A stretch of 19,329 nt of DNA. Source: a virus (Duplodnaviria > Heunggongvirae > Uroviricota > Caudoviricetes). Where the stretch lies: positions 1 to 19,329 of the IMG/VR virus record IMGVR_UViG_2802429248_000011; one strand, given 5' to 3'. A program made the translations under genes and the position numbers. Below are positions 1 through 17,568 of the stretch, one piece after another. Each line of letters begins with the position of its first letter. Position 1 is the stretch's first letter. The notes beneath the pieces were generated by a model. The model worked only from the letters and a program-made list of their open reading frames with translations, was not told the origin of the DNA and searched no databases.

Positions 1-462
1 ATCCCGTTTCAGGAAATCAACATGTCGGTTTTCCAGTTCCGGAAAACGCCGCTGTACCGAGAGAGGGATCCCGTCAAGAATACTGGCAATTTCACCTGCG
101 ATCCGTGACAGCACGAAAGTACAGAATGCGGTTTCCACCACTTCTGCGGAGTCTCTGGCATTCTTCAGCTCCTGGGCGTCAGCCTGCGCACGCGTAAGTC
201 GATGGCGTTCGTACTCAATAGTCCCAGGCTGGAGATCTGCCTCGCTGGCAGCCCTGTAATCCTCAACCTCTTTACGGAGTTTTTCATTTTCGATATCAGC
301 TTCCCTCTGCGCATACCACTGAATTGCCATGGCGGTATCAAATACAGATTCAACGCCCTTACCACCTCCGGAGACGCAAGGGAGTCCCTGAGACTGCCAG
401 CGTTCAATCGTTCGCGGATCCACGTTGAAAATTTCGGCAAGTTTCTTTTTATTAACCTTCAT
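1..462 (-). CDS. nu1: Terminase small subunit, lambda Nu1-like (3' end cut by window edge)
   Basis: Minus-strand ORF with ATG at 460-462 running off the window start. Translation begins [23 protein letters not shown] and continues ...[58 protein letters not shown]..., matching lambda Nu1 as I remember it. It lies directly beside a lambda-type cos site. Confidence 0.9.
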
Positions 463-638
463 GAAACAGTCTCACAATAAATACAGGGTCCGACATGAAA
501 GTGCCCGAAAATGACTTTTTTAGGCGTTTTCATGTCGGACCTTTTACGGATTCGATATTAGAAAAAACAGATAGTTATGTTCGAGAAGTACCGACATGAT
601 TTTCCCCGGAAAATTTTCATAAATAGCGAAAACCCGCG

Positions 639-650
639 AGGTCGCCGCCC
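639..650 (-). other. cosN cohesive-end sequence of a lambda-type cos site (cosB expected in 463-638, cosQ side in 651-700)
   Basis: Minus strand reads GGGCGGCGACCTCGCGGGTTTTCGCTATTTATGAAAATTTTCC, which matches the lambda left end as I recall it. The plus-strand flank CGTAACCTGTCGGATC..CCGGAAAGGACCCG resembles the lambda right end. Position between Rz and Nu1 is as expected for a prophage. Confidence 0.8.
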
Positions 651-922
651 CGTAACCTGTCGGATCGCCGGAAAGGACCCGCAGGCGTTCTGGTTTATTC
701 GCAATGAATTCAATATCTGACAGACCTGAATACACGTCCTGTTTCTTCCACCCCCGCACAGGACTGGCGAGCATGAGGGACAAACCCGCGCACCATAAAC
801 GCGGTAAAAACCCGGTGTGCATCGTTTTTGATTATTCCCGCACACTCACGCAGAAGGAATTCCCCGTCGGGCTACGGTCATGGTTAATGCGGGAATACAG
901 CGACGATACTGCGCATGATGTG

Positions 923-1472
923 TCAGACTTGAATACCCTTATCGAATCCCGGTAATAAAAACTGTCCCTGTCTCTCCAGGCGTTTCAGCTTTGCAAGCAA
1001 TTGAGGTTTTTTCGTTCTTCCCCAGCGATTGAGCAGCCGGCCAGACATACTGGCGACATCCTTCTCTTTCATATACTCCAGCATTATGGCGTTGCGTTCT
1101 GCTTCATAACTTTCGCTGTACTTACGGAGTTCTGCTGACATCCAGTTAAAGGCATTTATATAGGCCTCTTTAACGGCGTCGGCTTTTGCGCCATTAAATC
1201 CCATGACCAGCATAACGAAGCCACTAAAGTCCATGCGGTAGTAAATCTGTTTCTTGTCGAAAATCCCTAATTCATTGATTTTTTTCGGCAACGCAAAAAT
1301 GCGCGCTCCGGAAATCTTCAGAGCAATGACAATTTTTCAGCGCCCTCAATACGTCCGCGTGACGCTTACCAAAAGCCTTTGCGATCTGGAAGGTGTCAGT
1401 TACCGGTTGACCTTCTGCTGCGGTAACTAACTGGCGAAAGTCAAAGTCATGATTCACAATTAATTCATTCAT
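923..1472 (-). pseudogene. Rha-family phage regulatory protein (antirepressor-like), reading frame broken in an A7 homopolymer
   Basis: Two overlapping minus-strand ORFs (1272..1541 and 923..1291) together encode a Rha-like protein (N part ...QPVTDTFQIAKAFGKRHADVLRAL..., C part ...YYRMDFSGFVMLVMGFNGAKADAVKEAYINAFNWM...). The frames join if the A7 run (plus 1279-1285) is read as A6. Likely start is ATG at 1472 with an AGGTAA Shine-Dalgarno. Confidence 0.55.
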
Positions 1473-1623
1473 GGCGTTACCTGCTACTTCGAAATGAACC
1501 TTTGCCGCACAGGAAACCAGCCCACCGAGGCTCGCCAGCACTAACTGGTATCCTCAAAGGCCCATTCCAAAGGGTCAGGTTCGGTGGTTATTGTGCGCTG
1601 CGGTGCGCGGTGAAATACCTATA

Positions 1624-1690: not shown

Positions 1691-2140
1691 TTATTTTAAG
1701 CACTGCGTCCTAATGTACTCCTGCAAGTAGTTAACCTGCGCGGTTATCCTGTCGATTCCACTTCGGAGACGGTAATAATTGAGTTCAGCATCTGCTGTAA
1801 GTCTTGGGCTTTCTCCATCGCCCATGCCGCTGGCTCCGGTCTTTGACTTTGCACAGGAGGCGGCGACTTGCAGCCGCTTACGCCCAGCAGAAACATCATC
1901 ACGGAGACTTTCGATAGTCGCGTTAGCATCAGCAAGCTCCTTTGTATATCTGGCATCGAGTTCTGCTACATCACGTTGACGCTTCTGCATATCAGCGATG
2001 ATGGATGTGGCTTTATCGCGCTGGTCTTTGTAGGCGATGGCGTTATCACGGTAATGATTAACAGCCCATGACAGGCAGACGATGATGCAGATAACCAGAG
2101 CGGAGATAATCGCGGTTACTCTGTTCATTACTGACCCCAC
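1691..2140 (-). CDS. Rz: Rz inner-membrane spanin (i-spanin)
   Basis: 149-aa ORF with an N-terminal TM segment ([19 protein letters not shown]) and coiled-coil periplasmic domain, similar to lambda Rz as recalled. Overlaps the end of R and contains an embedded +1-frame lipoprotein ORF. Confidence 0.9.
1744..1929 (-). CDS. Rz1: Rz1 outer-membrane lipoprotein spanin (o-spanin), embedded in Rz; start codon uncertain
   Basis: ORF wholly inside Rz in another frame. Signal peptide with lipobox ...LLGVSGC followed by a proline-rich mature region ([17 protein letters not shown]...), the typical Rz1 architecture. Confidence 0.7.
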
Positions 2141-2622
2141 AAACAGATTTCACGCTCAATCTCACGACGAGTCATGAGACCTTTCCATTGCTTACCGCCA
2201 GCATATGTCCAGCGACGTAGCTGATCACATGCGCCTTTGATATCGCCCTGGTTTATTTTGCGAAGAAGCGTCGATGTTCTGAAATTGCCAGCACCCACGT
2301 TGTAAACGAATGAGTAAAGAGCGCCGCGCGTTGTTTCCGGTATATCGACTTTGATGTACGGGTTAATTTGTCTGGCGACAGTGGCAAGGTCTTTATTCAA
2401 GAGTGCTTTGCATTCTGCTTTGGTATACGTTTTACCGAGCATGATGTCTTTTCCTGTATGCCCGTGACATACAGTCCATACACCAACAATATCTTTGTAT
2501 GGTATGTAGCTGACACCTTCCAGACCATCGTTACCACTTGGGCCAGTGATTAACACTGATGCTATAGCAATTGCTCCGCCACCAATAGCAGCAACAACGG
2601 CTTTTCGTAATGATGGAGGCAT
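2128..2622 (-). CDS. R: SAR endolysin (phage 21 R-type lysozyme)
   Basis: 164 aa. N-terminal Gly/Ala-rich SAR segment ([20 protein letters not shown]) and the Glu35/Asp44/Thr50 catalytic positions (..[22 protein letters not shown]..). Near-identical to the phage 21 / DLP12 lysozyme as recalled. Confidence 0.92.
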
Positions 2623-2837
2623 TATTCACCTCTCGCAGCCTTACGCCTGTCTTCTTTAATCTTGAAATAAAGATTTGTCAGATACGTCAGCAGGCCAAAA
2701 ACCAGGCTACCCAGCACACCGATTGCAGCCCACTGTGACGGAGTTACTTTATCGAGTAACTGCAATGCCCAGAAACCAGCATTACCCGCCGATGTGCCAT
2801 AGGCAACACCTGTTGTTAACTTATCCATTGATTTCAT
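2622..2837 (-). CDS. S: Pinholin (phage 21 S-type holin) with dual-start motif
   Basis: 71 aa beginning [26 protein letters not shown]... with two TM segments. The Met1-Lys-Ser-Met4 dual start is typical of S21 antiholin/holin. Its stop overlaps the R start. Confidence 0.9.
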
Positions 2838-3056
2838 ATCCTCACCCCGATGTACACGGATGGTGCAATATGTTTGAAAATATCGGAGTCTACGGGGTAG
2901 TTTTTACAGCACACGTTGTTCTCAACGGCGCTAAAAAAACATACACATTAAAAATGTGGTTAATTATTTTGAAAGAAAATCATATATTAATTAATAATAC
3001 GAGAAATGTTTTCATATTTAGTGTACTGTATACGGCCATTTATACAGGAAAAGCCT

Positions 3057-3227
3057 ATGTCAGAACGTAAAGACTCAAAATCACGCCGTAATTATCTCGT
3101 TAAATGTTCCTGCCCAAACTGCACCCAAGAGTCAGAACACAGTTTTTCAAGAGTACAAAAAGGTGCCCTTTTGATCTGCCCTCATTGCAACAAAGTATTC
3201 CAGACAAATCTTAAAGCTGTAGCCTGA
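3057..3227 (+). CDS. Small zinc-ribbon protein (two CxxC pairs), moron gene
   Basis: 56-aa ORF MSERKDSKSRRNYLVKCSCPNCTQESEHSFSRVQKGALLICPHCNKVFQTNLKAVA. AGGAAA Shine-Dalgarno 6 nt upstream; TTGAAA / TAATAA promoter-like hexamers at 2969-2997. Confidence 0.6.
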   Translation: MSERKDSKSRRNYLVKCSCPNCTQESEHSFSRVQKGALLICPHCNKVFQTNLKAVA

Positions 3228-3286
3228 TTGATTTTATTCGCAACAAGTATTTTTTATATTTTAATAATATATTTAAAGCAGATAAT

Positions 3287-3309
3287 AAAAAACCCGCCTG
3301 AGCGGGTTT
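3287..3309 (-). terminator. Intrinsic terminator (strong on minus strand, weak on plus)
   Basis: AAAAAACCCGC-CTGA-GCGGGTTT hairpin. The minus strand has a T-run after the stem, so it would end the cspB-like transcript; the plus strand is followed by TAATATT. Confidence 0.55.
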
Positions 3310-3590
3310 AATATTGTGGTGCTTTTTGTGAGAGTCATCCACTTACGCACTTTGTTTTGCTATGCCAGCAGTTAGCTTCTGCTGTAAAACTATTCATGCA
3401 GCAAACCTGCACTTCACCACAATGGTTAGCATACTTTTCCTGATTAAGTTATTACCAAATATGCTGGCCATTGTTTCATGTATTGGACCGCCTTACTCTT
3501 TATTAAAGAGATCCAATATTCACCACTCTGTCTGTATCTCCACTCAGGCATCAGCCTTCTTCGTTATCGTATACAGACAAACTATGAATT

Positions 3591-3806
3591 TTAATCATTA
3601 ATGATGACATTTGCTGCTGCAGGACCTTTAGCACCACTCTCTACAGAGAAGGTAACCTTTTGACCTTCAAATAAGGTTCGATAATTATCATTCTGAATCG
3701 CAGAAAAATGCACAAACACATCTTTACTACCATCAACAGGAGAAATAAAGCCGAAACCTTTATCAGCGTTAAACCATTTTACTAAACCAGTCATTTTATT
3801 TGACAT
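3591..3806 (-). CDS. cspB: Cold-shock protein, CspA family (CspB-like)
   Basis: 71 aa [67 protein letters not shown]...; canonical cold-shock-domain RNP motifs; long upstream untranslated region as in csp genes. Confidence 0.9.
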
Positions 3807-4105
3807 TCTACATTCCTTAACTTGAGCCTTTCGGCATAAATGGTTTGTATAACAGAAACGACTTCGTACTTAATTGGAGAGACTCAAAGAAGGAATAAGT
3901 GAATAACACCTGAAATGAGAACTGCTTTAGTAAACTACTTCGTATATCGTCTGTTCTTCAAACCGACGCAATCATTAACGCATAGTTGAACATATGAAGC
4001 AATGTTTATTTTAGACATCCAGCCATCTTCAACCCCATCAAAAAACTATAGCTTTCTTCAGGAACGTGTGTATAGTGCGCCAAGTTATCAGTATTAAGGA
4101 ATTTT

Positions 4106-4318
4106 TTGTCCCGTAAAATGACAGGAATTGTCAAAACCTTTGACTACAAAAGCGGCAAAGGTCTTATCATACCATCCGATGGCCGTATCGATGTCCAGCT
4201 GCACGTTTCTGCTCTCAATCTCCGCGATGCAGAAGAAATTACCACAGGATTACGCGTGGAATTTTGCCGAATCAATGGTCTACGTGGACCTTCAGCTGCC
4301 AATGTTTATCTTTCATGA
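4106..4318 (+). CDS. cspF: Cold-shock-domain protein, CspF/CspH-like
   Basis: 70 aa [70 protein letters not shown]. Divergent from the cspB-like gene, as in the Qin prophage arrangement. First codon is TTG with AGGA upstream. Confidence 0.85.
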
Positions 4319-4372
4319 GCTATATTAAAGCTTTTACTTTAAGCCCCATCGGATCACACATGGAGAGTTTTT

Positions 4373-4462
4373 ATGAATAACCCCGTCTGCCTTGATGACT
4401 GGTTGATTGGCTTTAAAAGCTTATGCTGTACTTTGGCCGTAATAGCTCTGCTAATAATATAA
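4373..4462 (+). CDS. Putative 29-aa hydrophobic peptide (speculative small protein)
   Basis: GGAGAG Shine-Dalgarno 8 nt upstream of the ATG; encodes [29 protein letters not shown]. Lies between the cspF-like gene and its terminator. Confidence 0.25.
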
Positions 4463-4611
4463 TAAGCAGACTCATTGTGTTTAGGGACATTGTACTGGAA
4501 GAAAACATTTTAAACATCAGGCAAATAACTAAGTCACCAGCTAAATAATAAGTTAACAGACATGGGTCCCGGGATGAGGTTCAACATCACCATTGCCCCA
4601 TTTAAAGCACA

Positions 4612-4637
4612 AAACCCGCTCATCAGCGGGTTTTCTA
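4612..4637 (+). terminator. Intrinsic terminator, plus strand
   Basis: AAACCCGC-TCATCA-GCGGGTTT followed by TTCTAATTTCTTT. Confidence 0.6.
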
Positions 4638-5049
4638 ATTTCTTTCTAAACATCAGATATACAAAGCCCATCATTGAGGGAATCTTATCCATATTTTTTG
4701 AAAAATGCAAGCATCACGTTGCCATCTTCATTGAAAAACCTTTATCGTGTTACTTTTATCAATTGCACTTCAGCATAGAGTTATCCCAGGCAGCACTTTA
4801 AAGACTTCTACATTACACACACCTTGTCTCCCCTTCTCGTCATATCTGCAAGACCGATATGCATGACGCAGTACATACGCTGAACTGCTTTATCCATCAG
4901 CATATTCTAGTGCTAAAGCGACTTCAGTAGCAGAAGCAAAATTCTGCTACTGTGCCAAACAGGAGTAAACGTCATTTTATGTAATGTTGATTGAGTGGTC
5001 ATAGTATCACCTCAATAACAGCTCTTCGCCCTATCATTGAAAGCATATC

Positions 5050-5058
5050 TGCTATAAT
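5050..5058 (+). promoter_or_regulatory. Extended -10 promoter element (TGcTATAAT)
   Basis: TGCTATAAT lies about 32 nt upstream of the ATG at 5090; no good -35 hexamer, consistent with an extended -10 promoter. Confidence 0.35.
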
Positions 5059-5089
5059 TAAAAAGCCACTTAACATCAGGACTTCAAAC

Positions 5090-5275
5090 ATGACTTCAAA
5101 TCAATCTGAAAACGAAATAGTTAATACTGTCAAAAAATATGCATCATGTGCTGACGATGCTTTGCAGGCAGGCAAAGAAAACGTTAAAGATAAATTTAGA
5201 AATTATCCACTGACTAGCGTGGTGGTCGCTCTAAGCATAGGGTTAACGCTTGGTTTTATTATTGGCAGAAAATAA
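5090..5275 (+). CDS. Small C-tail-anchored membrane protein (ElaB/YqjD/DUF883-like)
   Basis: 61 aa MTSNQSENEIVNTVKKYASCADDALQAGKENVKDKFRNYPLTSVVVALSIGLTLGFIIGRK. AGGA Shine-Dalgarno 8 nt upstream; C-terminal TM anchor ending in basic residues as in the DUF883 family. Confidence 0.55.
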   Translation: MTSNQSENEIVNTVKKYASCADDALQAGKENVKDKFRNYPLTSVVVALSIGLTLGFIIGRK

Positions 5276-5338
5276 TCTTAAGCCTCCCATAAGTCGTACA
5301 CAATCACATCTACCAATTAATGTTCCATTAGTAAAAAA

Positions 5339-5357
5339 CCACCTCCTGTGGAGGTGG
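5339..5357 (-). terminator. Intrinsic terminator (strong on minus strand, weak on plus)
   Basis: CCACCTCC-TGT-GGAGGTGG: perfect 8-bp stem, A6 on the plus side upstream (T6 on the minus strand after the stem), TTT on the plus side. Confidence 0.5.
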
Positions 5358-6403
5358 TTTAAGGATAGCAACAAAACACAACCTACTTTAAACGGCTATA
5401 TTCTGCTATATCTAAATAATAGGTTCTCTTTTATCATCCGGTGAAAAAGGGTTCAATGGTTGCCCCTCATCAGGACGCTCAACGGGCTCATCATCAGGCT
5501 TACGGTCATCAAAATCTGGATGTTCTGACATATTCCACCCTAGTATTTTTATGCAGGAAAGATTATTTACTCTTTCCGGTTGTCTTTTTTATTATCCTTA
5601 CCCTTACTATCCTCATTGTTTTTATTCCTGTCATGAGATTTTTCATTTGAATCACTTACATATAATGTATTCATGGGGACTCCAGTTTTTTAACAGCACA
5701 ATGCTGTATCTGTAATTATAGATGCAATTAATCATTATGGTATGTATGTTTCATGCACAAATCAGAAACGCATCTAGTGCTTTAATTAATATGGATTTTA
5801 TTGCTGTAGATTTACAAAAATTTTCATAATTAACCAGCAATATAAGACAAATATCTCATAACATGAGGGAAATCAAGCTCATTTAAAGCAATTTATAATT
5901 TTCATCCTACTATTTTCCCTACACTGCCAACACCAGTTTCGTCGCAACACTCTGACAAGACACCTATAAAATCAGTTTCGTTATCACCTTAATTTTCTTC
6001 ATGGGTAACAAACCGGTAATACATCGATAGCCTGATTGATGCACGTTACTGTTACCTCTTCCCTGCATCAGGATGGCTTCCCAAGATGATATGGTTAATC
6101 ACACTGGAACATTCACGCATAACCGTTTCCTTCATATCCTGCCGTTTTAGCATGTCTTTTCCCCTTCTTGTTAATATCAATGACTAACACAAATCTAAAA
6201 AAGCCAGCAATGTAAAAAAACTGCATTCACGGCAACCAGAATGGTTACCGTTCTGCACAAAGTTTATGTCCACAAAAAAACCACTCTGCGCGGCTTATTG
6301 ATATTTTCCACCGGTATGCATATAAGGCTCATCATTGGAAAACTCTTTGCACGTTTCCTTAGAAAATACAATCGTTATGTCGCCATCGTTCGGTGAAAAT
6401 CTT

Positions 6404-7156
6404 TTATCTTGTCACTTTTCTCAGTTGTGCTTCTGCATACGCTTCTTCCTGCCAGCACTTTGTTACCAGTTTATCAATGACGTCCGCATACCCCTTGTAC
6501 CACTGATAATCTGTCAGGTCCGGTACCAACTTCTGGACATGACGTCGTGCCAGTGTGGTCGGTAAACGACTAAACCTGTTTCCATTACAACGCCCACAAA
6601 TCTTATAAACCGGTACGCCATGAAGCCGGGTTCTTTTTTCATCCAGGACAATACCTTTACCCTTACACCCTCTGCACGCTGTGCTGACTTCGCCCTTACC
6701 ATGGCAATGCTGACATAGTTCCTTCCCCCATTCTTCCTTGATAACAGATTCCCCACTTCTGTAGTGTTTCACCACTTCGCGCAATACATTATGAAATCCC
6801 GTACCTGCACAATGTTCACAGCGAGCCTTACTTGCCGCAGACCTGGAATAATCAGCAAAGGCAAAATTCACAAGGTAAGGGATGATCTGTAACCGGGTTT
6901 CTTCACTCAATTTGTTCAATATCGGGTTATCCAGTGCCATCGCGTAATTGAGCAGACCTTCAATCGCAAACTGAGGGTTCTGAACACCAACTTTTGCCAG
7001 AAATAAGGCAAACCCAAGCGGTGCTTTCGACTGCACCATCCCCTGCGCAGCCATCACATCCGTAATTGTTAAACCACCAGAGCCTGTCGCCGGTGCGTCA
7101 TCGCTCAGTTTTGGTGATTTCGGGGAGTAATATTTCGGTAAGACTTCAAGGTTCAT
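6404..7156 (-). CDS. Q: Late-gene antiterminator Q (lambda Q family)
   Basis: Translation from ATG 7156 (GGAGA Shine-Dalgarno) begins MNLEVLPKYYSPKSPKLSDDAPATGSGGLTITDVMAAQGMVQSK..., closely paralleling the lambda Q N-terminus as recalled. Cys-rich zinc-binding pairs (CEHCAGTG, CQHCHGKG, CRGCKGKG, CGRCNGN). Longest ORF is 6404..7198. Confidence 0.88.
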   Translation of the reverse strand: MNLEVLPKYYSPKSPKLSDDAPATGSGGLTITDVMAAQGMVQSKAPLGFALFLAKVGVQNPQFAIEGLLNYAMALDNPILNKLSEETRLQIIPYLVNFAFADYSRSAASKARCEHCAGTGFHNVLREVVKHYRSGESVIKEEWGKELCQHCHGKGEVSTACRGCKGKGIVLDEKRTRLHGVPVYKICGRCNGNRFSRLPTTLARRHVQKLVPDLTDYQWYKGYADVIDKLVTKCWQEEAYAEAQLRKVTR

Positions 7157-7169
7157 GCTCGTTCTCCAC

Positions 7170-8165
7170 TTACGCCAGCACGCCAATTGCCAGCGCACGA
7201 TCGATAAAACGAAATATCAGCTTCAGCTGGGAGCCATACTTCTCTTCAAATGCCACGGTATCCGCATGCAGCTCGTCGTGATGCTTTCTGCACAAAGGCA
7301 ACACAAAGAGGTCATGCGCTTTTGTAGCCATTCCACCCTGACCGTGGCCTATCAGGTGGTGGGGATCATCAGCAGGCTTTCCACAACATGCACACGGCTG
7401 TGTCTTAACCCAGCGCGTGTACTTTTCGTTAACCCAGCGGCGACGTTTGGGGCGTAACATAAAAGACTCCGGCGACTCCGGATCCACTTTCAGCGCCAGC
7501 ACCTTTTTCGCTTTATCCTGGATAATGCTGGTGGCAGGAACCGAAGGCACAAGGTCACTTTCCCGGGTGACAGACGGCACAACAGGCTTCGGTAATCTCA
7601 GTGCCTTACGGGCTGCACTTTCCGGTAAGGCATCCGCCAGGTCATTACGAATCAGCCACCAGCACAGTTCCGGCATTGTCACAACGTGACTATCATCAAA
7701 ACCGAGATCCCGACGCACAACAGACAACACCCAACGGGCACAGTTATCCGTTGCCATTGATTCCAGCCGTTCCGTGAACTGATCGCGCAGCTGGTTATCG
7801 CAGTGCCAGCACAGACGGATTGCGCCCGGGGCGTGTCGCATTGTGGTCATGTTCTCGCTGTGCCAGTCGGAATGAGGCCACTGGCAGCCCTTTTCACGAA
7901 GTAACCAGCTTTCAAGACATTCCACGCCACCAGCACGACGGATCACTGCCTCATTGCGGAACACGGCCCGAACGGCAGGATCATCCGCCAGCGGTTGTGA
8001 TGCCGCCGGAACGGCACCACTGGCGAAAGATGAATAACGCTCCGGCTCAGGCTCCAGCAGGACACGCCCCTGCATAAACAGGGGCATCAGCTCTGAACCT
8101 GGCCTGAACAATACGATCCCCATACGCGGGGCAATTTCAGGGGTCAGCAGTGCTCTCACGGTCAC
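7170..8165 (-). CDS. DUF968-like protein with C-terminal HNH/zinc-finger-like Cys/His motif; start codon uncertain
   Basis: 331-aa ORF. C-terminal ...TQPCACCGKPADDPHHLIGHGQGGMATKAHDLFVLPLCRKHHDELH... resembles the DUF968 family found just upstream of Q in E. coli lambdoid prophages (memory-based). Several candidate starts. Confidence 0.7.
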   Translation of the reverse strand: MTVRALLTPEIAPRMGIVLFRPGSELMPLFMQGRVLLEPEPERYSSFASGAVPAASQPLADDPAVRAVFRNEAVIRRAGGVECLESWLLREKGCQWPHSDWHSENMTTMRHAPGAIRLCWHCDNQLRDQFTERLESMATDNCARWVLSVVRRDLGFDDSHVVTMPELCWWLIRNDLADALPESAARKALRLPKPVVPSVTRESDLVPSVPATSIIQDKAKKVLALKVDPESPESFMLRPKRRRWVNEKYTRWVKTQPCACCGKPADDPHHLIGHGQGGMATKAHDLFVLPLCRKHHDELHADTVAFEEKYGSQLKLIFRFIDRALAIGVLA

Positions 8166-8211
8166 CTCAGCGAACGGTATTGCATGAACGCAGAAGAAAA
8201 AAATTCAGCCA

Positions 8212-8469
8212 TCACGCAGTAAACTCCTTCACCAGCGTTTCAAACTGGCTTACCTGGCCTTCCAGTTCCGCCACGCAATCCACCAGCTCATCCACCGCCT
8301 TTTGTGTGCGGTGTTTTGCCTGCAGCAGATCACGCAGCGCCGGAGTAAGCTGCTTGCAGAGCGTATCCTTTGCCACGCTCGTTTTTTCCATCTGTTCAGC
8401 ACAACGAAGCATCTCCTGTGCCTGCCGACGAAGTTGTTCCGGTGAAACAGTGGTTGTTCTGTTATTCAA
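8212..8469 (-). CDS. Hypothetical small coiled-coil protein (85 aa)
   Basis: ORF MNNRTTTVSPEQLRRQAQEMLRCAEQMEK... whose TTG start overlaps the DnaB-like stop (TTGA), suggesting translational coupling; no recognised family. Confidence 0.45.
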   Translation of the reverse strand: MNNRTTTVSPEQLRRQAQEMLRCAEQMEKTSVAKDTLCKQLTPALRDLLQAKHRTQKAVDELVDCVAELEGQVSQFETLVKEFTA

Positions 8470-9866
8470 AATAAACGCTCCGTTTTACTGCCCGACATGC
8501 GTTTATTGCTGTATCTGCGCGGATTGCCCGGAGTCATGGGTGTGGAAAGAACCCGGGCACTCTCCTGGTCCACAGGCAGAAAATGTCCGTTATAAAAACG
8601 CCGGTAAATCGTCCCCAGAGAACCGTTACGTTGTTTCGTGATATTGATTTCTGCGATGCCCCTGGCCTGCGTATCCGGGTTGTACACTTCATCCCTGTAA
8701 AGCATCAGAATGATGTCTGCATCCGCCTCTATTTCTCCGGAATTTTTCAGGTCCGAGTTCATGGGGCGTTTATTGGGTCTGGATTCCACGCCGCGGGAGA
8801 GCTGGCTAAGAGCAATCAGCGGAAAACCGCCGGATTTTGCCAGGCTTTTAAGTCCCTTTGAGATTTCCCCCACCGCAAGGTCGTGACGCCCCGTGCTGCG
8901 GGTTTTAATCAGGCCGAGGTAATCGACCACCACCAGCGCCGTTTCCGGGTGTTTCATCCGGTGGTGCTTCGTGGTTGCACATATCTCATCAATGGTCAGG
9001 TTTGCCTGGTCCACCATCCAGATATTACGCCCCGTCATTCGTCCCACGCCCTGCGAGAAACGCGCCCAGTCTTCATCTTCAAAACGGGCAACAGACTTAA
9101 GACGTGATACCGGCATTCCTCCAGCCGCAGACACCATACGTTCACCAATCTGGATGTTCGACATCTCCATGGTGAACAGAAGCACACCATGCCCCTGCTC
9201 AGTCACCTTGTCGATGATGTCCAGCGCAAGTTCGGTTTTCCCCATCGAAGGACGGGCGGCAATGAATACCAGGTCTCCGGGCTCCATACCGCCCGTTTTT
9301 GCGTCCAGTTCATCAATACCGGTCATCAGCGCCCTGGATTTCTCCAGTCCCTGATTGCGGCATTCAACACGGTCGACCACTTCCGGAAGGACATCATCAA
9401 TGTGAACCGGCTGAATGACGCCCTTTCCTGTCGACAGTGTGACCATCATGTTCTGCGCATCCTTCAGAGCATCCTCGGCTGCTTCACAGGTATGCGCATC
9501 ACGTAAATTCTGTAATGCTTCAGTCAGTGTTTTTTCTGCATCGCGCAGTGCGGCATTTCGCCGCAGCGCTGCAACATAGTGCTCCAGTGAAGACTTCACC
9601 CAGGTTTTACGCCCGGTGTCGGTAATCACCGGGGCAAGTTCCGGCATCTCATTGCACAGCAGCACGGGGTCAATGACGCCGGATACGCGAGCCTGTCTGC
9701 AAATCCCCGCGTAAATATCCCTGTACTGACGCACGAAAAAGACATCCGCCGGAAGCGTGGCCAGAATATCCATCACTTCCGGATCAGCCCCACGCAGAAA
9801 AAACGCGCCAATCACGGCACCTTCCAGGTCATCGTTACGCCATGCCGGATTTGTCGTTTTTGTCAT
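8466..9866 (-). CDS. Replicative DNA helicase, DnaB-like
   Basis: 466 aa from ATG 9866 (ATGA overlap with the upstream DnaC-like stop). Walker A ...FIAARPSMGKTELAL... and DnaB C-terminal RecA-like domain motifs. Confidence 0.9.
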   Translation of the reverse strand: MTKTTNPAWRNDDLEGAVIGAFFLRGADPEVMDILATLPADVFFVRQYRDIYAGICRQARVSGVIDPVLLCNEMPELAPVITDTGRKTWVKSSLEHYVAALRRNAALRDAEKTLTEALQNLRDAHTCEAAEDALKDAQNMMVTLSTGKGVIQPVHIDDVLPEVVDRVECRNQGLEKSRALMTGIDELDAKTGGMEPGDLVFIAARPSMGKTELALDIIDKVTEQGHGVLLFTMEMSNIQIGERMVSAAGGMPVSRLKSVARFEDEDWARFSQGVGRMTGRNIWMVDQANLTIDEICATTKHHRMKHPETALVVVDYLGLIKTRSTGRHDLAVGEISKGLKSLAKSGGFPLIALSQLSRGVESRPNKRPMNSDLKNSGEIEADADIILMLYRDEVYNPDTQARGIAEINITKQRNGSLGTIYRRFYNGHFLPVDQESARVLSTPMTPGNPRRYSNKRMSGSKTERLF

Positions 9867-10753
9867 GCTGCCACACCTCTGATATGCGCACGGTAGCTTT
9901 CCCAACCAAACACCAGGCAGTTACACCCACCATCAGTAACGCGATCCACAATCCGTTCACCAATGGATTCTTTAAGCTGTTCAAACGTCAGGTTGCTGAT
10001 CAAAATTGTCGGTAAAACGCTTTCGTAACGCGCATTTATGATTTCCTGCAGGATGGTTATCTCTGTAGGCGTGCCGAACTGCACACCAACCTCATCAATG
10101 ATCAGCAGGTTCAGTGAGGCGAAATGAGCGAGAACTTCATCCTCGGTACGCTCTGAATTGTGGCGCCAGGTATTTTTCACAGCGCGGGTCAGTCGCATAA
10201 CATCCGTAATTTCGACGGTCGCCTGGTGGTGGCGAATAATATTTTTTGCCATTGATACAGCCAGATGATTTTTCCCGGTACCACAATTGCCAATCATGAC
10301 CATGCTGGTACCCGCAGCAAGACACTTCTCCCATGAACCGGCATAGCGCCGACAAGCCTCAAGATTTCTCTGTGCGTCAGCATTCACCGCCTGATAATTC
10401 TCAAACTCGCAGTTCTGGAAGCGGCGGGCAATACCAGCCCTGTCGAGTAATTCATGAACTTTCAGGATGCGTAACGCCTCCTGTACCTGATCCAGCTCAT
10501 TCGCAATGCAGGTCGGGCAACCAGACACCCGTTTGATGGTTTCCCCACGAACATCTGGCCCTTTCAACACCAGACGTGTGTATTTCCCGTGTTTCTCACA
10601 CTCAGCAGTATCCTCGCTTGTCAGCCAGTGTTCACAGCGCCACGGACGCTTCCCGACACGGGCAAACTGCATCTCCTCCTCCAGTTCCGCCCTGCGGTTG
10701 AGCAATTGCGCTTTGTCGTGTTGTGCGTAGTGTTTTTTTAACTGTTCAAACAT
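9863..10753 (-). CDS. Helicase loader, DnaC/IstB-like AAA+ ATPase
   Basis: 296 aa. Walker A GNCGTGKNHLA and Walker B LLIIDEVG; GAGGTGA Shine-Dalgarno before ATG 10753. Confidence 0.88.
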   Translation of the reverse strand: MFEQLKKHYAQHDKAQLLNRRAELEEEMQFARVGKRPWRCEHWLTSEDTAECEKHGKYTRLVLKGPDVRGETIKRVSGCPTCIANELDQVQEALRILKVHELLDRAGIARRFQNCEFENYQAVNADAQRNLEACRRYAGSWEKCLAAGTSMVMIGNCGTGKNHLAVSMAKNIIRHHQATVEITDVMRLTRAVKNTWRHNSERTEDEVLAHFASLNLLIIDEVGVQFGTPTEITILQEIINARYESVLPTILISNLTFEQLKESIGERIVDRVTDGGCNCLVFGWESYRAHIRGVAA

Positions 10754-10772
10754 TGTTCATCACCTCGAAAAA

Positions 10773-11582
10773 TCACCAGTTGAAGTTCGTTGAACCGTAG
10801 TCCTGCTCACTGAATCCCGAGATCGGGAGGCCGGTAGTTCGCCCACCTCCGGGAGCGGCTGGCTGTTGCCAAGATTCCTCGAAGTGACGATCGGGTCCAA
10901 AGAACGTCGCAGCCTGCTTCACGAACTGTGTGCCGATATTTCCGGTAGCTCGTACCCAGGCGGCATACCGCTTCACGCCATCAAGCATGGTCTCCGGTTT
11001 TATTCCCTCCCTGATACGGGCTTTCCAGGCTTTGAAGGCTGCTGACTTGGAATTGCCACCGGCACGTTTGGGATATTCCTGCCAGGCCTGTTCAAATTCC
11101 GGTGAATATTCCTGTCGGGCAGAACGCGCTGGTGCAGACGCGTCAGCGGATGCGCCAATAGTTGATTCATTGACTGGTTCTTTGACTGGTTCAAAAGAGT
11201 GACTGGTTCTGGGTGAATCTCCTGCACTACCCCCTAGTGCAACTCCTGCACCACCTGGTGAATTTGTTGCACTAGGTAGTGAATTATTTGCACTACCACC
11301 TAGTGAATCTTTTGCACCATCAAGACGAAGAAGATAAATATTGCTCGAGTTGCCTTTTTCACCTTTCCGGGAAACTTTTTTTACCAGTCCCGATTCACAA
11401 AGAGCCGTAATATGATTCATCACAGAACGTTTGCTAATCTCGCACTGATCAGCAATATGCTGATAGCTGGGCCAGCACTCGCCCTGATCGCTGGCATTAT
11501 CAGCCAGCTTAATCAGAACCAGTTTTCGCAATGGATTCCCCACACGAATTTTCATCGCTTTAACCATCAGCTCCATGCTCAT
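10773..11582 (-). CDS. Replication initiator (lambda O-like; N-terminal winged-HTH, low-complexity linker, C-terminal domain)
   Basis: 269 aa. GGGAGG Shine-Dalgarno before ATG 11582. Direct repeats with internal dyad symmetry (iterons) lie in the linker-coding part of the gene, as in lambda O/ori. Confidence 0.8.
   Translation of the reverse strand: MSMELMVKAMKIRVGNPLRKLVLIKLADNASDQGECWPSYQHIADQCEISKRSVMNHITALCESGLVKKVSRKGEKGNSSNIYLLRLDGAKDSLGGSANNSLPSATNSPGGAGVALGGSAGDSPRTSHSFEPVKEPVNESTIGASADASAPARSARQEYSPEFEQAWQEYPKRAGGNSKSAAFKAWKARIREGIKPETMLDGVKRYAAWVRATGNIGTQFVKQAATFFGPDRHFEESWQQPAAPGGGRTTGLPISGFSEQDYGSTNFNW
11223..11310. repeat. Origin-of-replication iterons (four ~20-22 bp repeats with internal dyad symmetry) inside the initiator gene
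   Basis: TGCACTACCCCCTAGTGCAA / TGCACCACCTGGTGAATT / TGCACTAGGTAGTGAATT / TGCACTACCACCTAGTGAAT in tandem. Adjacent at 11165-11215 are three copies of TGACTGGTTC. Confidence 0.7.
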
Positions 11583-11803
11583 AGAGCACCTCCCAGGCGT
11601 TTAAACATTTTTCCGGACTGAAACGCCATCAACGGATAGCTAATGGTGTAGTTACGCCCCAGTAATTCACACACAACTTTCTGGCTTTCGGTGCTGACCA
11701 GGCAAACCCGCAGAACGTGACCGTTGCTGGTGGCGAACCACTGCCCCACACGGGGGCAACGGTTGTATCGGTGATACAGGGAATTAACGATGTAGCGGAT
11801 CAT
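11579..11803 (-). CDS. Hypothetical protein (74 aa)
   Basis: GGAGGTG Shine-Dalgarno; ATGA overlaps with both the upstream ORF and the initiator gene downstream; no recognised family. Confidence 0.55.
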   Translation of the reverse strand: MIRYIVNSLYHRYNRCPRVGQWFATSNGHVLRVCLVSTESQKVVCELLGRNYTISYPLMAFQSGKMFKRLGGAL

Positions 11804-11994
11804 GGACGCACCTCCGCCGTAGTTACGTATTTAACCGGGCTACCTTTCATTGAGATGGTTTCACACATCTCTGCCGCTTTCAGTTCCGCCGTTTTTCTGG
11901 ATTTATAGCGACGGTGCCAGACAGATACATCCGTGCGAACTGATACATCGTTTCTGTATTCCGTAGTGGAGATGATGATTTCGTAACTAATCAT
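11800..11994 (-). CDS. Hypothetical protein (64 aa)
   Basis: GGGAGG Shine-Dalgarno 7 nt before ATG 11994, which overlaps the upstream stop (ATGA); MISYEIIISTTEYRNDVSVRTDVSVWHRRYKSRKTAELKAAEM... Confidence 0.55.
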   Translation of the reverse strand: MISYEIIISTTEYRNDVSVRTDVSVWHRRYKSRKTAELKAAEMCETISMKGSPVKYVTTAEVRP

Positions 11995-12653
11995 GGGCGT
12001 ACCTCCCATTGATTACGGCGAAAAGCAGTGTGATTCAGGCTGGTTTCAGCCTCATGGAATGCTCCAATGCAGCTCTCGTAGTACCGCATTGTGCGTAGAC
12101 TTAACCCAAGCTGAAGCATCATCAGGCCATCAAGGGTGATGTAATAACCACGCAGGGAGTCACCATAGATGTGGTAAGTACCCGGTATGAAGTTGCGGGT
12201 AAAAAATTCGCGCGAGCAGTTCAGATACTCGATTTTGTCGACGATGTTCTGGTGCATGCGCTTAAAGTGGCAGGCAACATGCAGGGAGAAAATAACAGCT
12301 TTGCCGTTGACGACTTCGATTTTGAGGAATGGGGAAGTTGGGACTGTAGCCATGATGGCAGCCTCCTTGATCGGTGAAAAACTTCCACCACCGGAGCTGC
12401 GAAACTCATGGGTGGTGAACTGAACAGGGTTCGCAGTACCGGCGATCAAGGAAACCGGCGAGCCTTTCGGCTCCCCTGCCCAGCCCACCATAATTCTGGC
12501 GTGCGTGAGCGCAGACGATAAAAAAGACGCTGGCGCGTCGTATATCGCCTTGATCAATTCCGGGCTGCGACCCCCGGCACCCGCTTTATAAGGTGCTGGA
12601 ACAGTGTAACGTCCCGAAATTACAGAATCAATATTTTGGCTTGAAACATTCAT
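11991..12653 (-). CDS. Hypothetical protein with Gly/Ser/Pro/Ala-rich N-terminal region and folded C-terminal domain; start codon uncertain (open frame extends to 12887; strong internal Shine-Dalgarno + ATG at 12353)
   Basis: 897-nt open frame. The first in-frame ATG (12653) lacks a Shine-Dalgarno; an internal ATG at 12353 has AAGGAGG 8 nt upstream. C-terminal domain ...YYITLDGLMMLQLGLSLRTMRYYESCIGAF... is not confidently assignable. Confidence 0.5.
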   Translation of the reverse strand: MNVSSQNIDSVISGRYTVPAPYKAGAGGRSPELIKAIYDAPASFLSSALTHARIMVGWAGEPKGSPVSLIAGTANPVQFTTHEFRSSGGGSFSPIKEAAIMATVPTSPFLKIEVVNGKAVIFSLHVACHFKRMHQNIVDKIEYLNCSREFFTRNFIPGTYHIYGDSLRGYYITLDGLMMLQLGLSLRTMRYYESCIGAFHEAETSLNHTAFRRNQWEVRP

Positions 12654-12677
12654 ATGCTTACTGGTATTTTTACTAAC

Positions 12678-12767
12678 GCAAATGTTCTTGGATGTTACTG
12701 GCTTACTTCTTTGTGAGGTTGCCTTTACTAACGTTGAGCGAGCCGGGTCACTACCCGGCTTTTTTTC
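12678..12767 (+). ncRNA. Candidate oop-like antisense small RNA (about 90 nt)
   Basis: Promoter-like TTGAAA (12641-12646), 18-bp spacer, TG-extended -10 TGgTATTTT (12662-12670), and a strong plus-strand terminator ending at 12767. Antisense to the Rha-2 stop and the region upstream of the next gene. Confidence 0.3.
12741..12767 (+). terminator. Intrinsic terminator oriented against the pR-type operon (antisense terminator)
   Basis: Plus strand AGCCGGGT-CACT-ACCCGGCT followed by T7; on the minus strand the hairpin is preceded by A7 and has no U-tract. Confidence 0.6.
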
Positions 12768-13473
12768 ACCGCTGCCAACCAATAACCTGAAATAACCCCA
12801 TTTTCGGGTGATACCAGCGAGTCCCTCGCGGTTCTGCTTCCGCCATAACCTGATGGAAAGCAGCCATAAACGGTTCCACGGCAACAATTGCGCGACGTGA
12901 CAACAATCCGTCCGGCGTCATGAACTCATGGGTGTCTGTAGGAATTTGATAAGCGTTCACCAGATTGCGGCATTTATCATCTGACAAACCGGTTTTCGCT
13001 TTCAGTTGGCGATATCCGGCATAGCCCTCACGAATGTTGCCCTTTTTGATTTGCTCAACTGTTTCGGCAACGTGGCTGACTTTTTCTTCCACCTGAGTGA
13101 TCCGTTTCTGCTGACGAACAGCTTCAAGAGCCATCGCGGCAACCATTTCGATTTCGCTCATTGGCTTACGGATCTGTTCTTCCAGTTCGCGCCAGCGATC
13201 TACTAGGCGGGCTGTGAATTCGGGACAAAGCTGTGCGACGACAATGATGCTGTCGCGCTTACCTTGTTCGCCTTCGAAGATGTAAGCACCTACATTTCGT
13301 TTTAATCCTAAGTTGTTGATTATTTCGAAATTCGCCATTGGCGCACTTCGAATAATCCCCTTATCCATGAGCCTTTCAATGCTGCGCTTAACATCTTTGT
13401 GTTGGCTGCCCACCAACTCTGCGATTTCAAGGCTGGTCATGGATGCTTTGCCGTTAAAAATTGCGGTGTTCAT
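12766..13473 (-). CDS. Rha-family phage regulatory protein (antirepressor-like)
   Basis: 235 aa. N-terminal ...MTSLEIAELVGSQHKDVKRSIERLMDKG... fits the Rha domain pattern; its ATG overlaps the cro-like stop (ATGA). Confidence 0.78.
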   Translation of the reverse strand: MNTAIFNGKASMTSLEIAELVGSQHKDVKRSIERLMDKGIIRSAPMANFEIINNLGLKRNVGAYIFEGEQGKRDSIIVVAQLCPEFTARLVDRWRELEEQIRKPMSEIEMVAAMALEAVRQQKRITQVEEKVSHVAETVEQIKKGNIREGYAGYRQLKAKTGLSDDKCRNLVNAYQIPTDTHEFMTPDGLLSRRAIVAVEPFMAAFHQVMAEAEPRGTRWYHPKMGLFQVIGWQR

Positions 13474-13733
13474 TGTTGGTCTCCTGTGGGCTTGTCATCC
13501 TCTGTGTGCGCTAAGCTTGGATGTGGAAAAAGCTCTGGTAGGTCTGGACGAAATTCATACGCTTGGATCTTTCCGTCGACAGCTGCAACCAATAACGGCA
13601 CAAATTCTGGTGAAATCTTGTTCTTGCAGTTCAACCAATCGCAGACTGTTGACTGGGCCTTTCCGCATCGCTTGGCTAAGGCTTGCTGACTTCCAAGAAT
13701 CTCAATAGCTTTCTCTATGGCTTTATGTTTCAT
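13470..13733 (-). CDS. cro: Cro-like repressor (Cro/YdaS-family HTH)
   Basis: 87 aa from ATG 13733 (GGAG Shine-Dalgarno): MKHKAIEKAIEILGSQQALAKRCGKAQSTVCDWLNCKNKISPEFVPLLVAAVDG.... Divergent from the CI gene. Longest ORF extends to 13784. Confidence 0.8.
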   Translation of the reverse strand: MKHKAIEKAIEILGSQQALAKRCGKAQSTVCDWLNCKNKISPEFVPLLVAAVDGKIQAYEFRPDLPELFPHPSLAHTEDDKPTGDQQ

Positions 13734-13755
13734 AATCGCATCTCCTATTGAACGC

Positions 13756-13784
13756 ATAATAACAACAGGAAAAGCGATATTCAA
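13756..13784 (-). promoter_or_regulatory. pR-type promoter for the cro-like operon
   Basis: On the minus strand, TTGAAT (-35), a 17-bp spacer and TATTAT (-10), about 20 nt upstream of the cro-like Shine-Dalgarno. Confidence 0.5.
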
Positions 13785-13803
13785 CGTTAAACCTAGAACA
13801 TTT

Positions 13804-13817
13804 ATCGGAAAGCCGAT
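13804..13817. promoter_or_regulatory. Palindromic operator candidate in oR (ATCGGAAAGCCGAT); a weaker related site at 13765-13778
   Basis: 14-bp dyad matching two sites beside the pL-type promoter (ATCGATAAACCGAT, ATCGGTAAACCTAT); located between divergent cI and cro start regions. Confidence 0.45.
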
Positions 13818-13852
13818 AGACTAGCCAAGATAGAGAGGGGAGGAAAATCGCA

Positions 13853-14545
13853 ATGACATTTTCAGAACGACTTGATTTAGCTATGCGCAACGCAAAATTT
13901 ACGCAAGGTAGGCTGGCCAAAGAAGTGGGTATGGCTCAGTCCAGTGTCAATCAACTACTTAACAAAGCCAACGGTTCCAGAAAAACAGTCGAAATAGCAA
14001 AAGTTTTGGGCGTTAACCCGGAATGGCTCGCATCGGGTGTTGGCCCAATGGAAATCGTGACCTCTGCAGACTCACACCAAATACGTAACATTTCTGAAGA
14101 TTGGGTTACTGATTCGTATGTCGTGGATGTTTTAGACATCAGATATAGTTGCGGACCTGGCAGTTATAACTCTGATTTTCCTGACATTGTCAGATCTATA
14201 GCGATAGAACCAGGATACGCATCAAGAGTTTTTGGCGGCAGACCAGCATCAGCAATCAAAGCAATAAACGCCCACGGCGACAGTATGAAAGGCACAATAG
14301 ACCCTGAAGACTTGGTATTTGTAGATGTATCAGTTCGCACATTTAATGGTGATGGTATATACGCCTTTACATACTCTGGAACATCGCACATCAAAAGACT
14401 TCAAAAAATCAAAGATACTCTAACGGTGATATCTGACAACCCAGCTTACAAGGATTGGGCTATCGAACCGGAAGACTTTGAACAACTTCACATTGACGGA
14501 AAAGTAATTGTCAGTTGGCCTATGACACTACACCGTTTTGCATAA
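13853..14545 (+). CDS. cI: CI-type prophage repressor (N-terminal HTH, C-terminal LexA-like S24 autopeptidase domain)
   Basis: 230 aa. N-terminal HTH (..QGRLAKEVGMAQSSVNQLL..) and C-terminal S24 motifs (..HGDSMKGTIDPEDLVFVD.. and ..IKRLQK..). GGAGG Shine-Dalgarno; divergent from cro. Confidence 0.9.
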   Translation: MTFSERLDLAMRNAKFTQGRLAKEVGMAQSSVNQLLNKANGSRKTVEIAKVLGVNPEWLASGVGPMEIVTSADSHQIRNISEDWVTDSYVVDVLDIRYSCGPGSYNSDFPDIVRSIAIEPGYASRVFGGRPASAIKAINAHGDSMKGTIDPEDLVFVDVSVRTFNGDGIYAFTYSGTSHIKRLQKIKDTLTVISDNPAYKDWAIEPEDFEQLHIDGKVIVSWPMTLHRFA

Positions 14546-14563
14546 GCAAAAATCATTTAACCC

Positions 14564-14589
14564 GCCCACTCTTAAGTGGGCTTTTTTTT
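14564..14589 (+). terminator. Intrinsic terminator after the repressor gene
   Basis: GCCCACT-CTTA-AGTGGGC followed by T8. Confidence 0.75.
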
Positions 14590-14596
14590 GGAAAAA

Positions 14597-14638
14597 ATCG
14601 ATAAACCGATTGACAGGCGAAATCGGTAAACCTATTAT
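14597..14638 (+). promoter_or_regulatory. pL-type early-left promoter with two operator dyads
   Basis: Consensus TTGACA (14610-14615), 17-bp spacer, TATTAT (14633-14638). Dyads ATCGATAAACCGAT (14597-14610) and ATCGGTAAACCTAT (14622-14635) overlap the -35 and the spacer/-10. Confidence 0.6.
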
Positions 14639-14687
14639 TATGGCATAGGTATCGAACTCACCAAAGCAATTATAGAGGATGAGAAAA

Positions 14688-15185
14688 ATGTCATCGTATA
14701 TGGGGTTACCAACAAATCAGCACGATGCTCTTGAGAATATTCAGCTCTTAGTCGGGGCTGGTGCACTACTGTATAGCAGCAATAACCCTGAGTTAATTGA
14801 ACTTGCCAGCTCCATCCTGGCTGTAACTCAAAAATATAGCCTCACAGCGTCGCGTTTATGCAAACAAAATTTAGCTATTAATTCCCAGAATCGGATTAGC
14901 ACTCAACGCGAAGCCTGCGGCTTAACAACCGCCGAACTCGCCAGGCTGCTCGATCTCGATGAAGAAATTATCATCCAGTGGGAGAGCGGAGAGTATGAAC
15001 CAACCATCAGCATGCTTATCCCACTGGCAAATATTCTTGGCTGCGATCCGATGTGGCTGTTAACTGGCGAGGTTACTCCTCCGGAGCAACCAAAAAGTGA
15101 GGAGCAGCAACACCATGACGCATCTCAACAAGTTTGCTCCTTATCTCGCGAAGCTCTTCTACGGAAGAACCAATACCAATGGTGA
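14688..15185 (+). CDS. HTH (XRE-family) protein, first gene of the early-left operon; N-terminal domain of unknown function
   Basis: 165 aa from ATG 14688 (AGAGGA Shine-Dalgarno). XRE-type HTH in residues ~95-150 (..CGLTTAELARLLDLDEEIIIQWESGEYEPTISMLIPLANILGCDPMWLLTG..). Occupies the position of N in lambda but is not N-like. Confidence 0.7.
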   Translation: MSSYMGLPTNQHDALENIQLLVGAGALLYSSNNPELIELASSILAVTQKYSLTASRLCKQNLAINSQNRISTQREACGLTTAELARLLDLDEEIIIQWESGEYEPTISMLIPLANILGCDPMWLLTGEVTPPEQPKSEEQQHHDASQQVCSLSREALLRKNQYQW

Positions 15186-15313
15186 CATAATCACCGCTTC
15201 GCCCCTCAAGGTACATGCGAACATTTTTATCAATCATTGCGGAAACAGTCTCAATATGAAAACACTTCTGAGACTCGCTATATAGCAGAACATATAAGTC
15301 AGCTGAGGAAGCC

Positions 15314-15679
15314 GTGAAAAAGTTCGAAAACATAACTGCTCTCCATGTTGATGACTTTGATTATACAAACCCGGAACTTCTCCCGGAGGTTGTAAAGGCA
15401 ATAGATGTTGCCGATATAGTGATTAGAGGAAAGAGAATCGTCAAAAACAGGCTCGCATGCACTTCAGGAGCAATGACAGAAACAACCTCACAACAAGATG
15501 ATTATGAAGGCATTTGTCTGGAGCCGGACTCATTTGCGGTAAATGTTTATCATTTATTGCATGCAACACAGGTATTACATATGTCAAGTAATCACGAAAC
15601 AAAAACACTTGGCAGCGAAATTCTGAATTTTGCATGTGAATATGCAAAAGCTGCTGCCGAAAAAGAATTAGCACAATAA
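15314..15679 (+). CDS. Hypothetical protein (121 aa)
   Basis: GTG start with GAGGAA upstream; balanced composition; the antisense frames over its body are Leu/His/Cys-rich and look non-coding. Confidence 0.5.
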   Translation: MKKFENITALHVDDFDYTNPELLPEVVKAIDVADIVIRGKRIVKNRLACTSGAMTETTSQQDDYEGICLEPDSFAVNVYHLLHATQVLHMSSNHETKTLGSEILNFACEYAKAAAEKELAQ

Positions 15680-15875
15680 CAATAAATATTCCCTGAATGT
15701 TTATTACGGTTTTATCGCCGGGGATTGTTGCAACCTTTATTCGCAGGTGATTATGTTATGACTTTCCTGAAACATAAGGCATCGTATAAAACTGCCTGCC
15801 TCATTGTACAACATGGAGATTCTTATCTTCATATAGCCAACCTGTATTTGCGCAAAGCATATGGGAGATAAGTCA

Positions 15876-16642: not shown

Positions 16643-16644
16643 AC

Positions 16645-17565: not shown

Positions 17566-17568
17566 AGA

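Follow-up and report, generated by a model that had tools for sequence, protein, structure and literature searches.

The window, a stretch of 19,329 nucleotides of DNA analysed at its full length, carries near its left end a cos site and the beginning of a small terminase gene, both read on the minus strand. It corresponds to positions 2-19330 of PTSI01000028.1, a 56,972-bp draft contig (assembly GCA_002965825.1), so that it starts one base inside the contig end. In the numbering used for cos, bp 1 of the cohesive end is window position 650. Reading down the minus strand from 720 to 440, one passes cosQ (680-674), cosN (650-639), an A/T-rich stretch, three CATGTCGG cores and then the ATG at 462. 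Every element of a lambda-like cos is present: cosN, cosQ, a complex cosB, the proper distance between cosN and R3, and an adjacent Nu1-family gene. The minus strand was aligned with the phage 21 head-operon record (M81255), using its depositors' annotations of R4/cosQ, the cohesive end, I2, R3, I1, R2, R1 and I0, and with the joined ends of lambda (NC_001416). A scan of 400-1700 for promoters and terminators returned none above shuffles.

The 12-nt cohesive end GGGCGGCGACCT (cosN, 639-650, minus strand) occurs in the window as a single exact copy, where shuffles predict 0.04 copies at one mismatch or fewer, and it is identical in lambda and in phage 21. Beside it lies cosQ, the site needed to end packaging, which reads GGGTCCT (674-680, minus strand; bp -30 to -24). 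It is the same as lambda 48473-48479 and as the “R4” box of M81255, it is spaced as expected of a lambda-like cos (7 bp, about 17 bp upstream of cosN), and it is invariant across 13 related cos sequences. On the other side of cosN, a putative positional homologue of the IHF site I2 is found at 607-621 (minus strand; bp 30-44), at the same bp as the I2 annotated in M81255. In this segment the window is the same as lambda, and the alignment shows it departing from phage 21 at bp 42 and 44. Overall, the minus strand at 606-683 (bp -33 to +45), whose counterpart is lambda 48470-48502 joined to bp 1-45, is one base off lambda (CGGCGATCC vs CGGTGATCC in lambda), and bp -21 to +45 are lambda-identical. 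A 92-aa ORF (544-822, minus strand) spans cosQ, cosN and R3. The identical ORF is called a “hypothetical protein” in the record of phage IdasGreatGrand (PP925829), where cos is unannotated and the annotated ORF runs across cosN. Because virion DNA would have it severed, this ORF is probably a spurious gene call.

Beyond bp 45 the resemblance changes. The layout R3-I1-R2-R1 is that of phage 21, and so are the boxes. R3, AATCATGTCGGTACTT (586-601, minus strand; bp 50-65), matches 15/16 bases of the annotated 21 box AATCGTGTCGGTACTT, the lambda box being AGGCGTTTCCGTTCTT. R2, AAGGTCCGACATGAAA, is inverted (528-543, minus strand; bp 108-123) and matches its annotated 21 counterpart at 16/16, while R1, TTTCATGTCGGACCCT (485-500, minus strand; bp 151-166), does so at 14/16. 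A blind repeat finder run on 440-720 recovered the R1/R2 and R2/R3 inverted repeats and the R1/R3 direct repeat. The cores of R3, R2 and R1 are CATGTCGG, CCGACATG and CATGTCGG at bp 53-60, 113-120 and 154-161, and all three follow the phage 21 core (C/T)(A/G)TGTCGG. The lambda core CGTTTCC, which puts T at bp 56 and C at bp 59 of R3, is found at none of them; at these two specificity positions the window and phage 21 both have G and G. In register, the cores coincide with lambda's CGTTTCC boxes (53-59, 114-120 and 155-161), so that all subsite positions are those of lambda, and they lie within 1 bp of those of phage 21. The R3-to-R2 spacing is 1 bp longer than in phage 21. This distance varies by ±1 bp in natural relatives; the R3 core itself is fixed at bp 53-60, both in the three aligned sequences (window, lambda and 21) and in all the relatives compared that have an R3. 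In lambda, even a 3-bp deletion between cosN and R3 is severely defective (PMC9026076). Between R3 and R2, a putative IHF bending site occupies the place of I1 in M81255 (565-579, minus strand; bp 72-86). Its plus strand at 565-577 reads AAACAGATAGTTA, with 2 mismatches to the consensus WATCAANNNNTTR, and the lambda equivalent is AAACATTAAGTTA. Because a scan of the window for this consensus at two mismatches or fewer is without statistical value (255 matches vs 237 expected, not significant), it is the position of the putative I1 that supports it.

The Nu1-family ORF (PF07471, E 2e-85 over residues 1-154) starts at the ATG at 462 on the minus strand, which is bp 189 as in phage 21, and leaves the start of the window after 154 codons. 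Its first 65 residues (268-462, minus strand) make up a predicted winged helix-turn-helix DNA-binding domain of phage 21 type. Over residues 1-62 the identity is 90% to 21 gp1, against 60% to lambda Nu1. The closest solved structure is PDB 7LWR, that is 21 gp1 residues 1-54, with 49/54 residues matching (91%), and the lambda domain structure (PDB 1J9I) scores lower. The helix of the small terminase (TerS) comprises residues 17-24 and the wing residues 31-39 (PMC9026076). The window's recognition helix, RTIERWQS, is identical to that of 21 and has E20 and S24, whereas lambda's is RTIQNWQE with Q20 and E24. The wing, SGGGKGVES, differs from the SKGSKGIES of 21 at 3/9 positions. From there on the protein changes type: residues 66-154 (1-267, minus strand), the presumptive central oligomerisation region, are of lambda type, and over residues 63-154 the identity is 95% to lambda Nu1 and 58% to 21. 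The 21-type C-terminal half that pairs with gp2 is thus replaced in the window. The last ~27 residues of Nu1 and all of the large terminase lie beyond the contig break. This truncation is the end of a draft-assembly contig and no deletion. The break was likely induced by a repeat, since it sits in the lambda-type part that is common to many prophages.

The cos-Nu1 region is therefore a three-part natural mosaic, made of lambda cosQ-cosN-I2, a phage 21 cosB with the N-terminus of Nu1, and a lambda Nu1 body. From bp -40 to +45, where 13 sites are informative between lambda and 21, the window agrees with lambda at 6, with 21 at 3 and with neither at 4. Over bp 47-381 it follows 21 at 120/148 informative sites, and from about bp 384 onward, as far as the window reaches, it sides with lambda at 85/101. 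The best two-breakpoint model places the junctions at bp 45/47 and 381/384, which are window positions 606/604 and 270/267. The second falls at Nu1 codon ~65, right after the conserved IENEKLR motif. Between the two lies a 335-bp “specificity cassette” of phage-21 type (270-604, minus strand; bp 47-381) with lambda-type sequence on both sides. The R boxes and the recognition helix, both inside it and both of 21 type, are mutually matched. The cosQ-side sequence appears to reassort independently of cosB type. In one IMG/VR locus (L017), compared over bp -40 to -1, a 21-identical right end is joined to a window-type left end, consistent with frequent recombination at or through cos.

An earlier note, made from the sequence of the window, had placed a lambda-type cos in reverse orientation beside Nu1 at 463-700. 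The site is indeed there, with complete cosQ, cosN and cosB, and the Nu1-family ATG lies one base below that interval. The same note took the cohesive end and its flanks, Nu1 and packaging as a whole to be lambda-like. For the flanks this holds at cosN, at cosQ and as far as bp 45, and fails on the cosB side beyond it. For Nu1 it is right from about residue 65 onward and wrong for residues 1-62, where 21 is much the closer relative. As a description of packaging it therefore suits the cutting and termination part, while the cosB R boxes and the DNA-binding domain of Nu1 are of 21 type. A disrupted cosB, which by the note's own terms would have told against it, is not what the alignment shows: cosB is intact, of predicted 21 specificity, and accompanied by its cognate DNA-binding domain. 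The packaging-competent prophage that the note proposed would also need a large terminase and head genes, which lie outside the window.

Relatives in IMG/VR show how these parts are combined elsewhere. Scanning for ACGGGGCGGCGACCTCGCGG gave at least 120 contigs with the lambda cosN, and 126 sites were classified among the matches listed. Among these matches, a lambda-type R3 goes with the helix RTIQNWQ[E/D] in 66/66 cases and a 21-type R3 with RTIERWQS in 10/10, with no cross-pairing; these counts come from kin sequences rather than independent events and are descriptive. Nine 21-specificity loci among the matches listed could be typed, five of which are 21-type throughout. The remaining four have the window-type arrangement, defined as R3 CATGTCGG, the wing SGGGKGVES and a lambda-type Nu1 C-half. 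The N-terminus of the large terminase is of lambda gpA type in IdasGreatGrand and in loci L042 and L105 (93% over 96 residues), and also in L079 (89% over 65 visible residues), whereas in the pure 21-type loci it is of gp2 type (97-100%). Because gpA type accompanies the window-type loci and gp2 type the pure 21-type loci, the C-half of the small subunit and the N-terminus of the large one travel together, in keeping with the mapped interaction domains. For phages with lambda-like cohesive ends one more specificity, the third, is documented, that of N15/Monarch; it shares the overall layout, but it has a helix of RTVTAWQS type and a different R3, and is not the window's type. Behind the exact lambda cosN, two more pairs of R3 and helix were seen in IMG/VR. 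The first, AATCAGATCCGTTCTT with RTITAWQS (L005, L024, L114), a helix similar to that of PDB 7LXS, is possibly of N15/Monarch kind. The second, AAGCATGTCAGTTCTT with the helix RTIDRWQT (L055), may be a packaging specificity not yet characterised.

The closest phage is IdasGreatGrand, whose complete genome was deposited with swamp mud as its source and which, according to that database record, is a viable isolate; a literature search for it found no publication. Window positions 1-700 are 100% identical to it and positions 1-2100 differ at 3 places, the small terminase is identical over the 154 visible residues, and the lysis cassette is also of 21 type. Its small terminase closes with ...LSEYIEQSD, where the lambda protein has ...EQSG. 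Its early region is unlike the window's, with Red/Gam-type recombination genes and a different replication module. In bacterial genomes the allele is widespread. A 591-bp query spanning both breakpoints is at least 80% covered in 1152/5426 complete E. coli genomes, many of them at 98.8-99.3% identity and including O157:H7, O26 and O121 strains. Many genomes carry several copies (median 2, at up to 8 places). That the allele is common and conserved in E. coli argues for a functional cos. It is a well-understood kind of site, and public records already contain its exact sequence, as do roughly one in five complete E. coli genomes. The whole window is in no complete E. coli genome or phage record at 80% coverage or more, and for this reason the context beyond Nu1 was taken from relatives.

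Lambda and phage 21 share cosQ and cosN, yet they discriminate more than 1000-fold between each other's DNA, and this discrimination has been mapped to residues 20 and 24 of the TerS helix and to bp 56 and 59 of R3 (PMC4669245). We read window 463-700 as the cos of a lambda-family temperate phage, in which recognition of 21 type is set on a cutting part of lambda type and is served by a predicted lambda-type large subunit, and we give this reading a probability of about 0.88. Because the R boxes, the recognition helix and the specificity positions all carry 21 states, the DNA specificity is predicted to be that of phage 21, not that of lambda. It is likely to be identical to that of canonical 21, though short of proven because the wing differs at 3/9 positions and R3 at bp 54. 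The large-terminase partner is predicted to be lambda-like, by analogy with the relatives that carry the window allele. Since the C-half of Nu1 is of lambda type and the large subunit of these relatives of gpA type, the terminase would be a lambda/21 chimera and not the 21 holoenzyme (gp1 + gp2).

Such an enzyme would recognise 21-type DNA, not lambda DNA, and would work with a lambda-type large subunit. By analogy with the lambda and 21 paradigm, R1 would be an accessory site. The large terminase would be anchored on cosN, 41 bp away, and would introduce nicks staggered by 12 nt. Across cosN, cosQ would serve the end of the preceding genome's packaging. For this particular site, we infer cleavage, the virion DNA ends, IHF binding and the discrimination between 21 and lambda from homology. 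The arrangement has a laboratory precedent: a hybrid small terminase with the N-half of 21 and the C-half of lambda was functional (Frackman, Siegele and Feiss, 1985, J Mol Biol 183:225, as summarised in PMC9026076). As far as that summary goes, the hybrid combined, like the window allele, a 21 N-half that binds cosB with a lambda C-half that binds the lambda large subunit. The hybrids came from laboratory crosses, whereas the window allele is natural and widespread in E. coli prophages.

The rest of the window is that of a lambdoid prophage assembled from several lineages. Lysis, described in the earlier note as phage-21-like, is so: the 71-residue holin, which shows no similarity to lambda S, belongs to PF04971 (“P21 holin S”). 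The endolysin has a hydrophobic N-terminus, presumably as in the signal-anchor-release endolysin R21, and an Rz gene is present. Q (6404-7198, minus strand), which the note called lambda-like, is so at the family level, with PF03589 in both proteins and 35% identity (E 4e-41), and an initial view of it as lying outside lambda Q's Pfam family was rejected on these grounds. It has an insertion of ~48 residues in the zinc-binding region, with extra CxxC motifs (a DnaJ-type zinc-finger match). The interval between Q and S bears out the Qin-like csp genes of the note, as it is a Qin-type cspB/cspF/ynfU block (97.6% match); nearly all complete E. coli genomes contain at least part of it. The cspA thermoregulator of Rfam matches at full length (158 bits; 3526-3967, minus strand), over the csp gene at 3591-3806 (minus strand), and a second csp gene lies at 4106-4318 (plus strand). 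Positions 3000-6000 have 32-41% G+C and few long ORFs.

The replication, immunity and int genes expected from the note are all in the window. The early genes seen encode a DnaB-type helicase, a DnaC-like loader, an initiator-like HTH protein, a LexA-like repressor and an integrase, and the half of the window from int to Q is phiP27-like. Rfam matches to the C4 antisense RNA (85 bits; 12408-12495, minus strand) and to isrK (57.6 bits; 12520-12596, minus strand) lie in or beside the Ash/Rha-family ORFs at 11991-13473 (minus strand), a region resembling the P1/P7-style units in which antisense RNA controls an antirepressor. The window ends with the integrase stop codon. A DUF72 gene (possibly yecE), yecN, cmoA, cmoB and torZ adjoin it, named here after the corresponding region of E. 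coli 377323_2f. That strain (NZ_CP039404, L125) has the same int-to-Q region as window 2012-19329, at 96% identity and at the same integration site, joined to a lambda-family holin and an HNH/P27-family terminase module. Because the same early region carries a different lysis and terminase module there, the comparison is a clear case of the lysis-packaging end being swapped as a unit. Between Rz and cos, a Rha-family (ORF11CD3 “anti-repressor”) gene at 923-1541 (minus strand) is broken at 1285, where a homopolymer has an additional A/T, into ORFs of 89 and 122 aa; IdasGreatGrand has a single 182-aa gene at this place. This could be either a real pseudogene or a draft-assembly error.

The split gene bears on the alternative that survives best, in which cos is intact but its carrier is a defective prophage. 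The site would then be a passive target, cut by a phage of 21 specificity, either co-resident or infecting, which would mobilise or mis-package the adjacent DNA. In addition to the 1-nt frameshift upstream, the structural genes are outside the window, the multiplicity of such cos copies in E. coli genomes would suit it, and packaging initiated at prophage cos sites has been discussed by Feiss and colleagues (PMC4669245). Against it, int, xis, cI, the replication genes, Q, S, R, Rz and the N-terminus of Nu1 are all open and of normal length. Since the assembly is a draft and the frameshift sits in a homopolymer, it may be a sequencing error; the contig break arose in assembly and gives no evidence of deletion. 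We judge a defective carrier possible but unlikely, at something like one chance in five.

Considerably more doubtful is the idea that the window allele has a sub-specificity apart from canonical 21, in which the wing SGGGKGVES and the A at bp 54 of R3 would have co-evolved. Among the IMG/VR matches listed, SGGGKGVES always goes with R3 CATGTCGG, and SKGSKGIES always with CGTGTCGG. This association is fully confounded with lineage, there being two haplotypes only. Moreover, canonical 21 has CATGTCGG at its own R2 and R1, so the DNA-binding domain of 21 itself binds that core, and the recognition helix is identical in both. It would be equally surprising if a fourth, sub-21 specificity with this wing and R3 base had spread through E. 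coli prophages, or if the 335-bp segment were a mobile cassette moving by double crossover between lambda-type packaging modules. Were such a cassette real, the gain would be that a prophage is kept apart from the terminases of other lambdoid prophages in the same host.

Still less probable, to the point of being nearly negligible, is a cos and Nu1 of lambda specificity, a site that the lambda terminase would recognise. It would account for cosQ, cosN and bp 13-45, which agree with lambda except at one nucleotide, and for residues 65-154 of Nu1, which are 95% lambda. But the recognition helix is of 21 type, as is each of the three R boxes, R3 bp 56/59 and TerS residues 20/24 are in 21 states, and neither the lambda nor the 21 terminase packages the other's DNA (PMC4669245). 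A cos belonging to a phage satellite (PICI) hardly deserves credence: although 39/126 of the lambda-cosN sites among the IMG/VR matches listed have a non-phage cosB and lack a Nu1 gene, in the window a canonical R3-I1-R2-R1 array makes up cosB, a Nu1-family gene comes next, and a full lambdoid early and lysis region beside the DUF72 gene surrounds them; on this anatomy a satellite identity is rejected. Because so many lambda-cosN sites are without phage cosB and Nu1, cosN alone is no proof of a phage.

Nor does the 12-nt cohesive end of lambda reveal packaging specificity, because the parts that set it, cosB and residues 1 to ~65 of the small terminase, lie ~50-380 bp further on. The value of the result is mainly that of an annotation correction. 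If the 21-specific reading is right, only terminases of 21 specificity, either the prophage's own or those of co-resident prophages, should cut the window's cos, which bears on which prophages of a poly-lysogen cross-package or interfere. The arrangement is also a natural counterpart to the lambda-21 hybrid terminases made in the laboratory, and E. coli prophages commonly show this mix; such a natural chimera confirms in wild populations the domain boundaries mapped with the hybrids of the 1980s.

Several other IMG/VR loci (L014, L026, L083 and L103, also L011 and L092) have two exact lambda cosN in inverted orientation, ~865 bp apart. In L026 the first cos is preceded by the genes of a capsid protein of lambda-E type and a decoration protein of D type. 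It faces a cosB that is not of lambda type, TGGTGGTGGTTTTGTT, and a Nu1-family protein of 180 aa whose N-terminus is unrelated; this resembles a capsid-forming satellite. The other cos of L026 is a 21-type cosQ-cosN-R3 without a terminase gene and points into the end of the ORF for the 180-aa Nu1-family protein, with gtrA/gtrB-like genes beyond.
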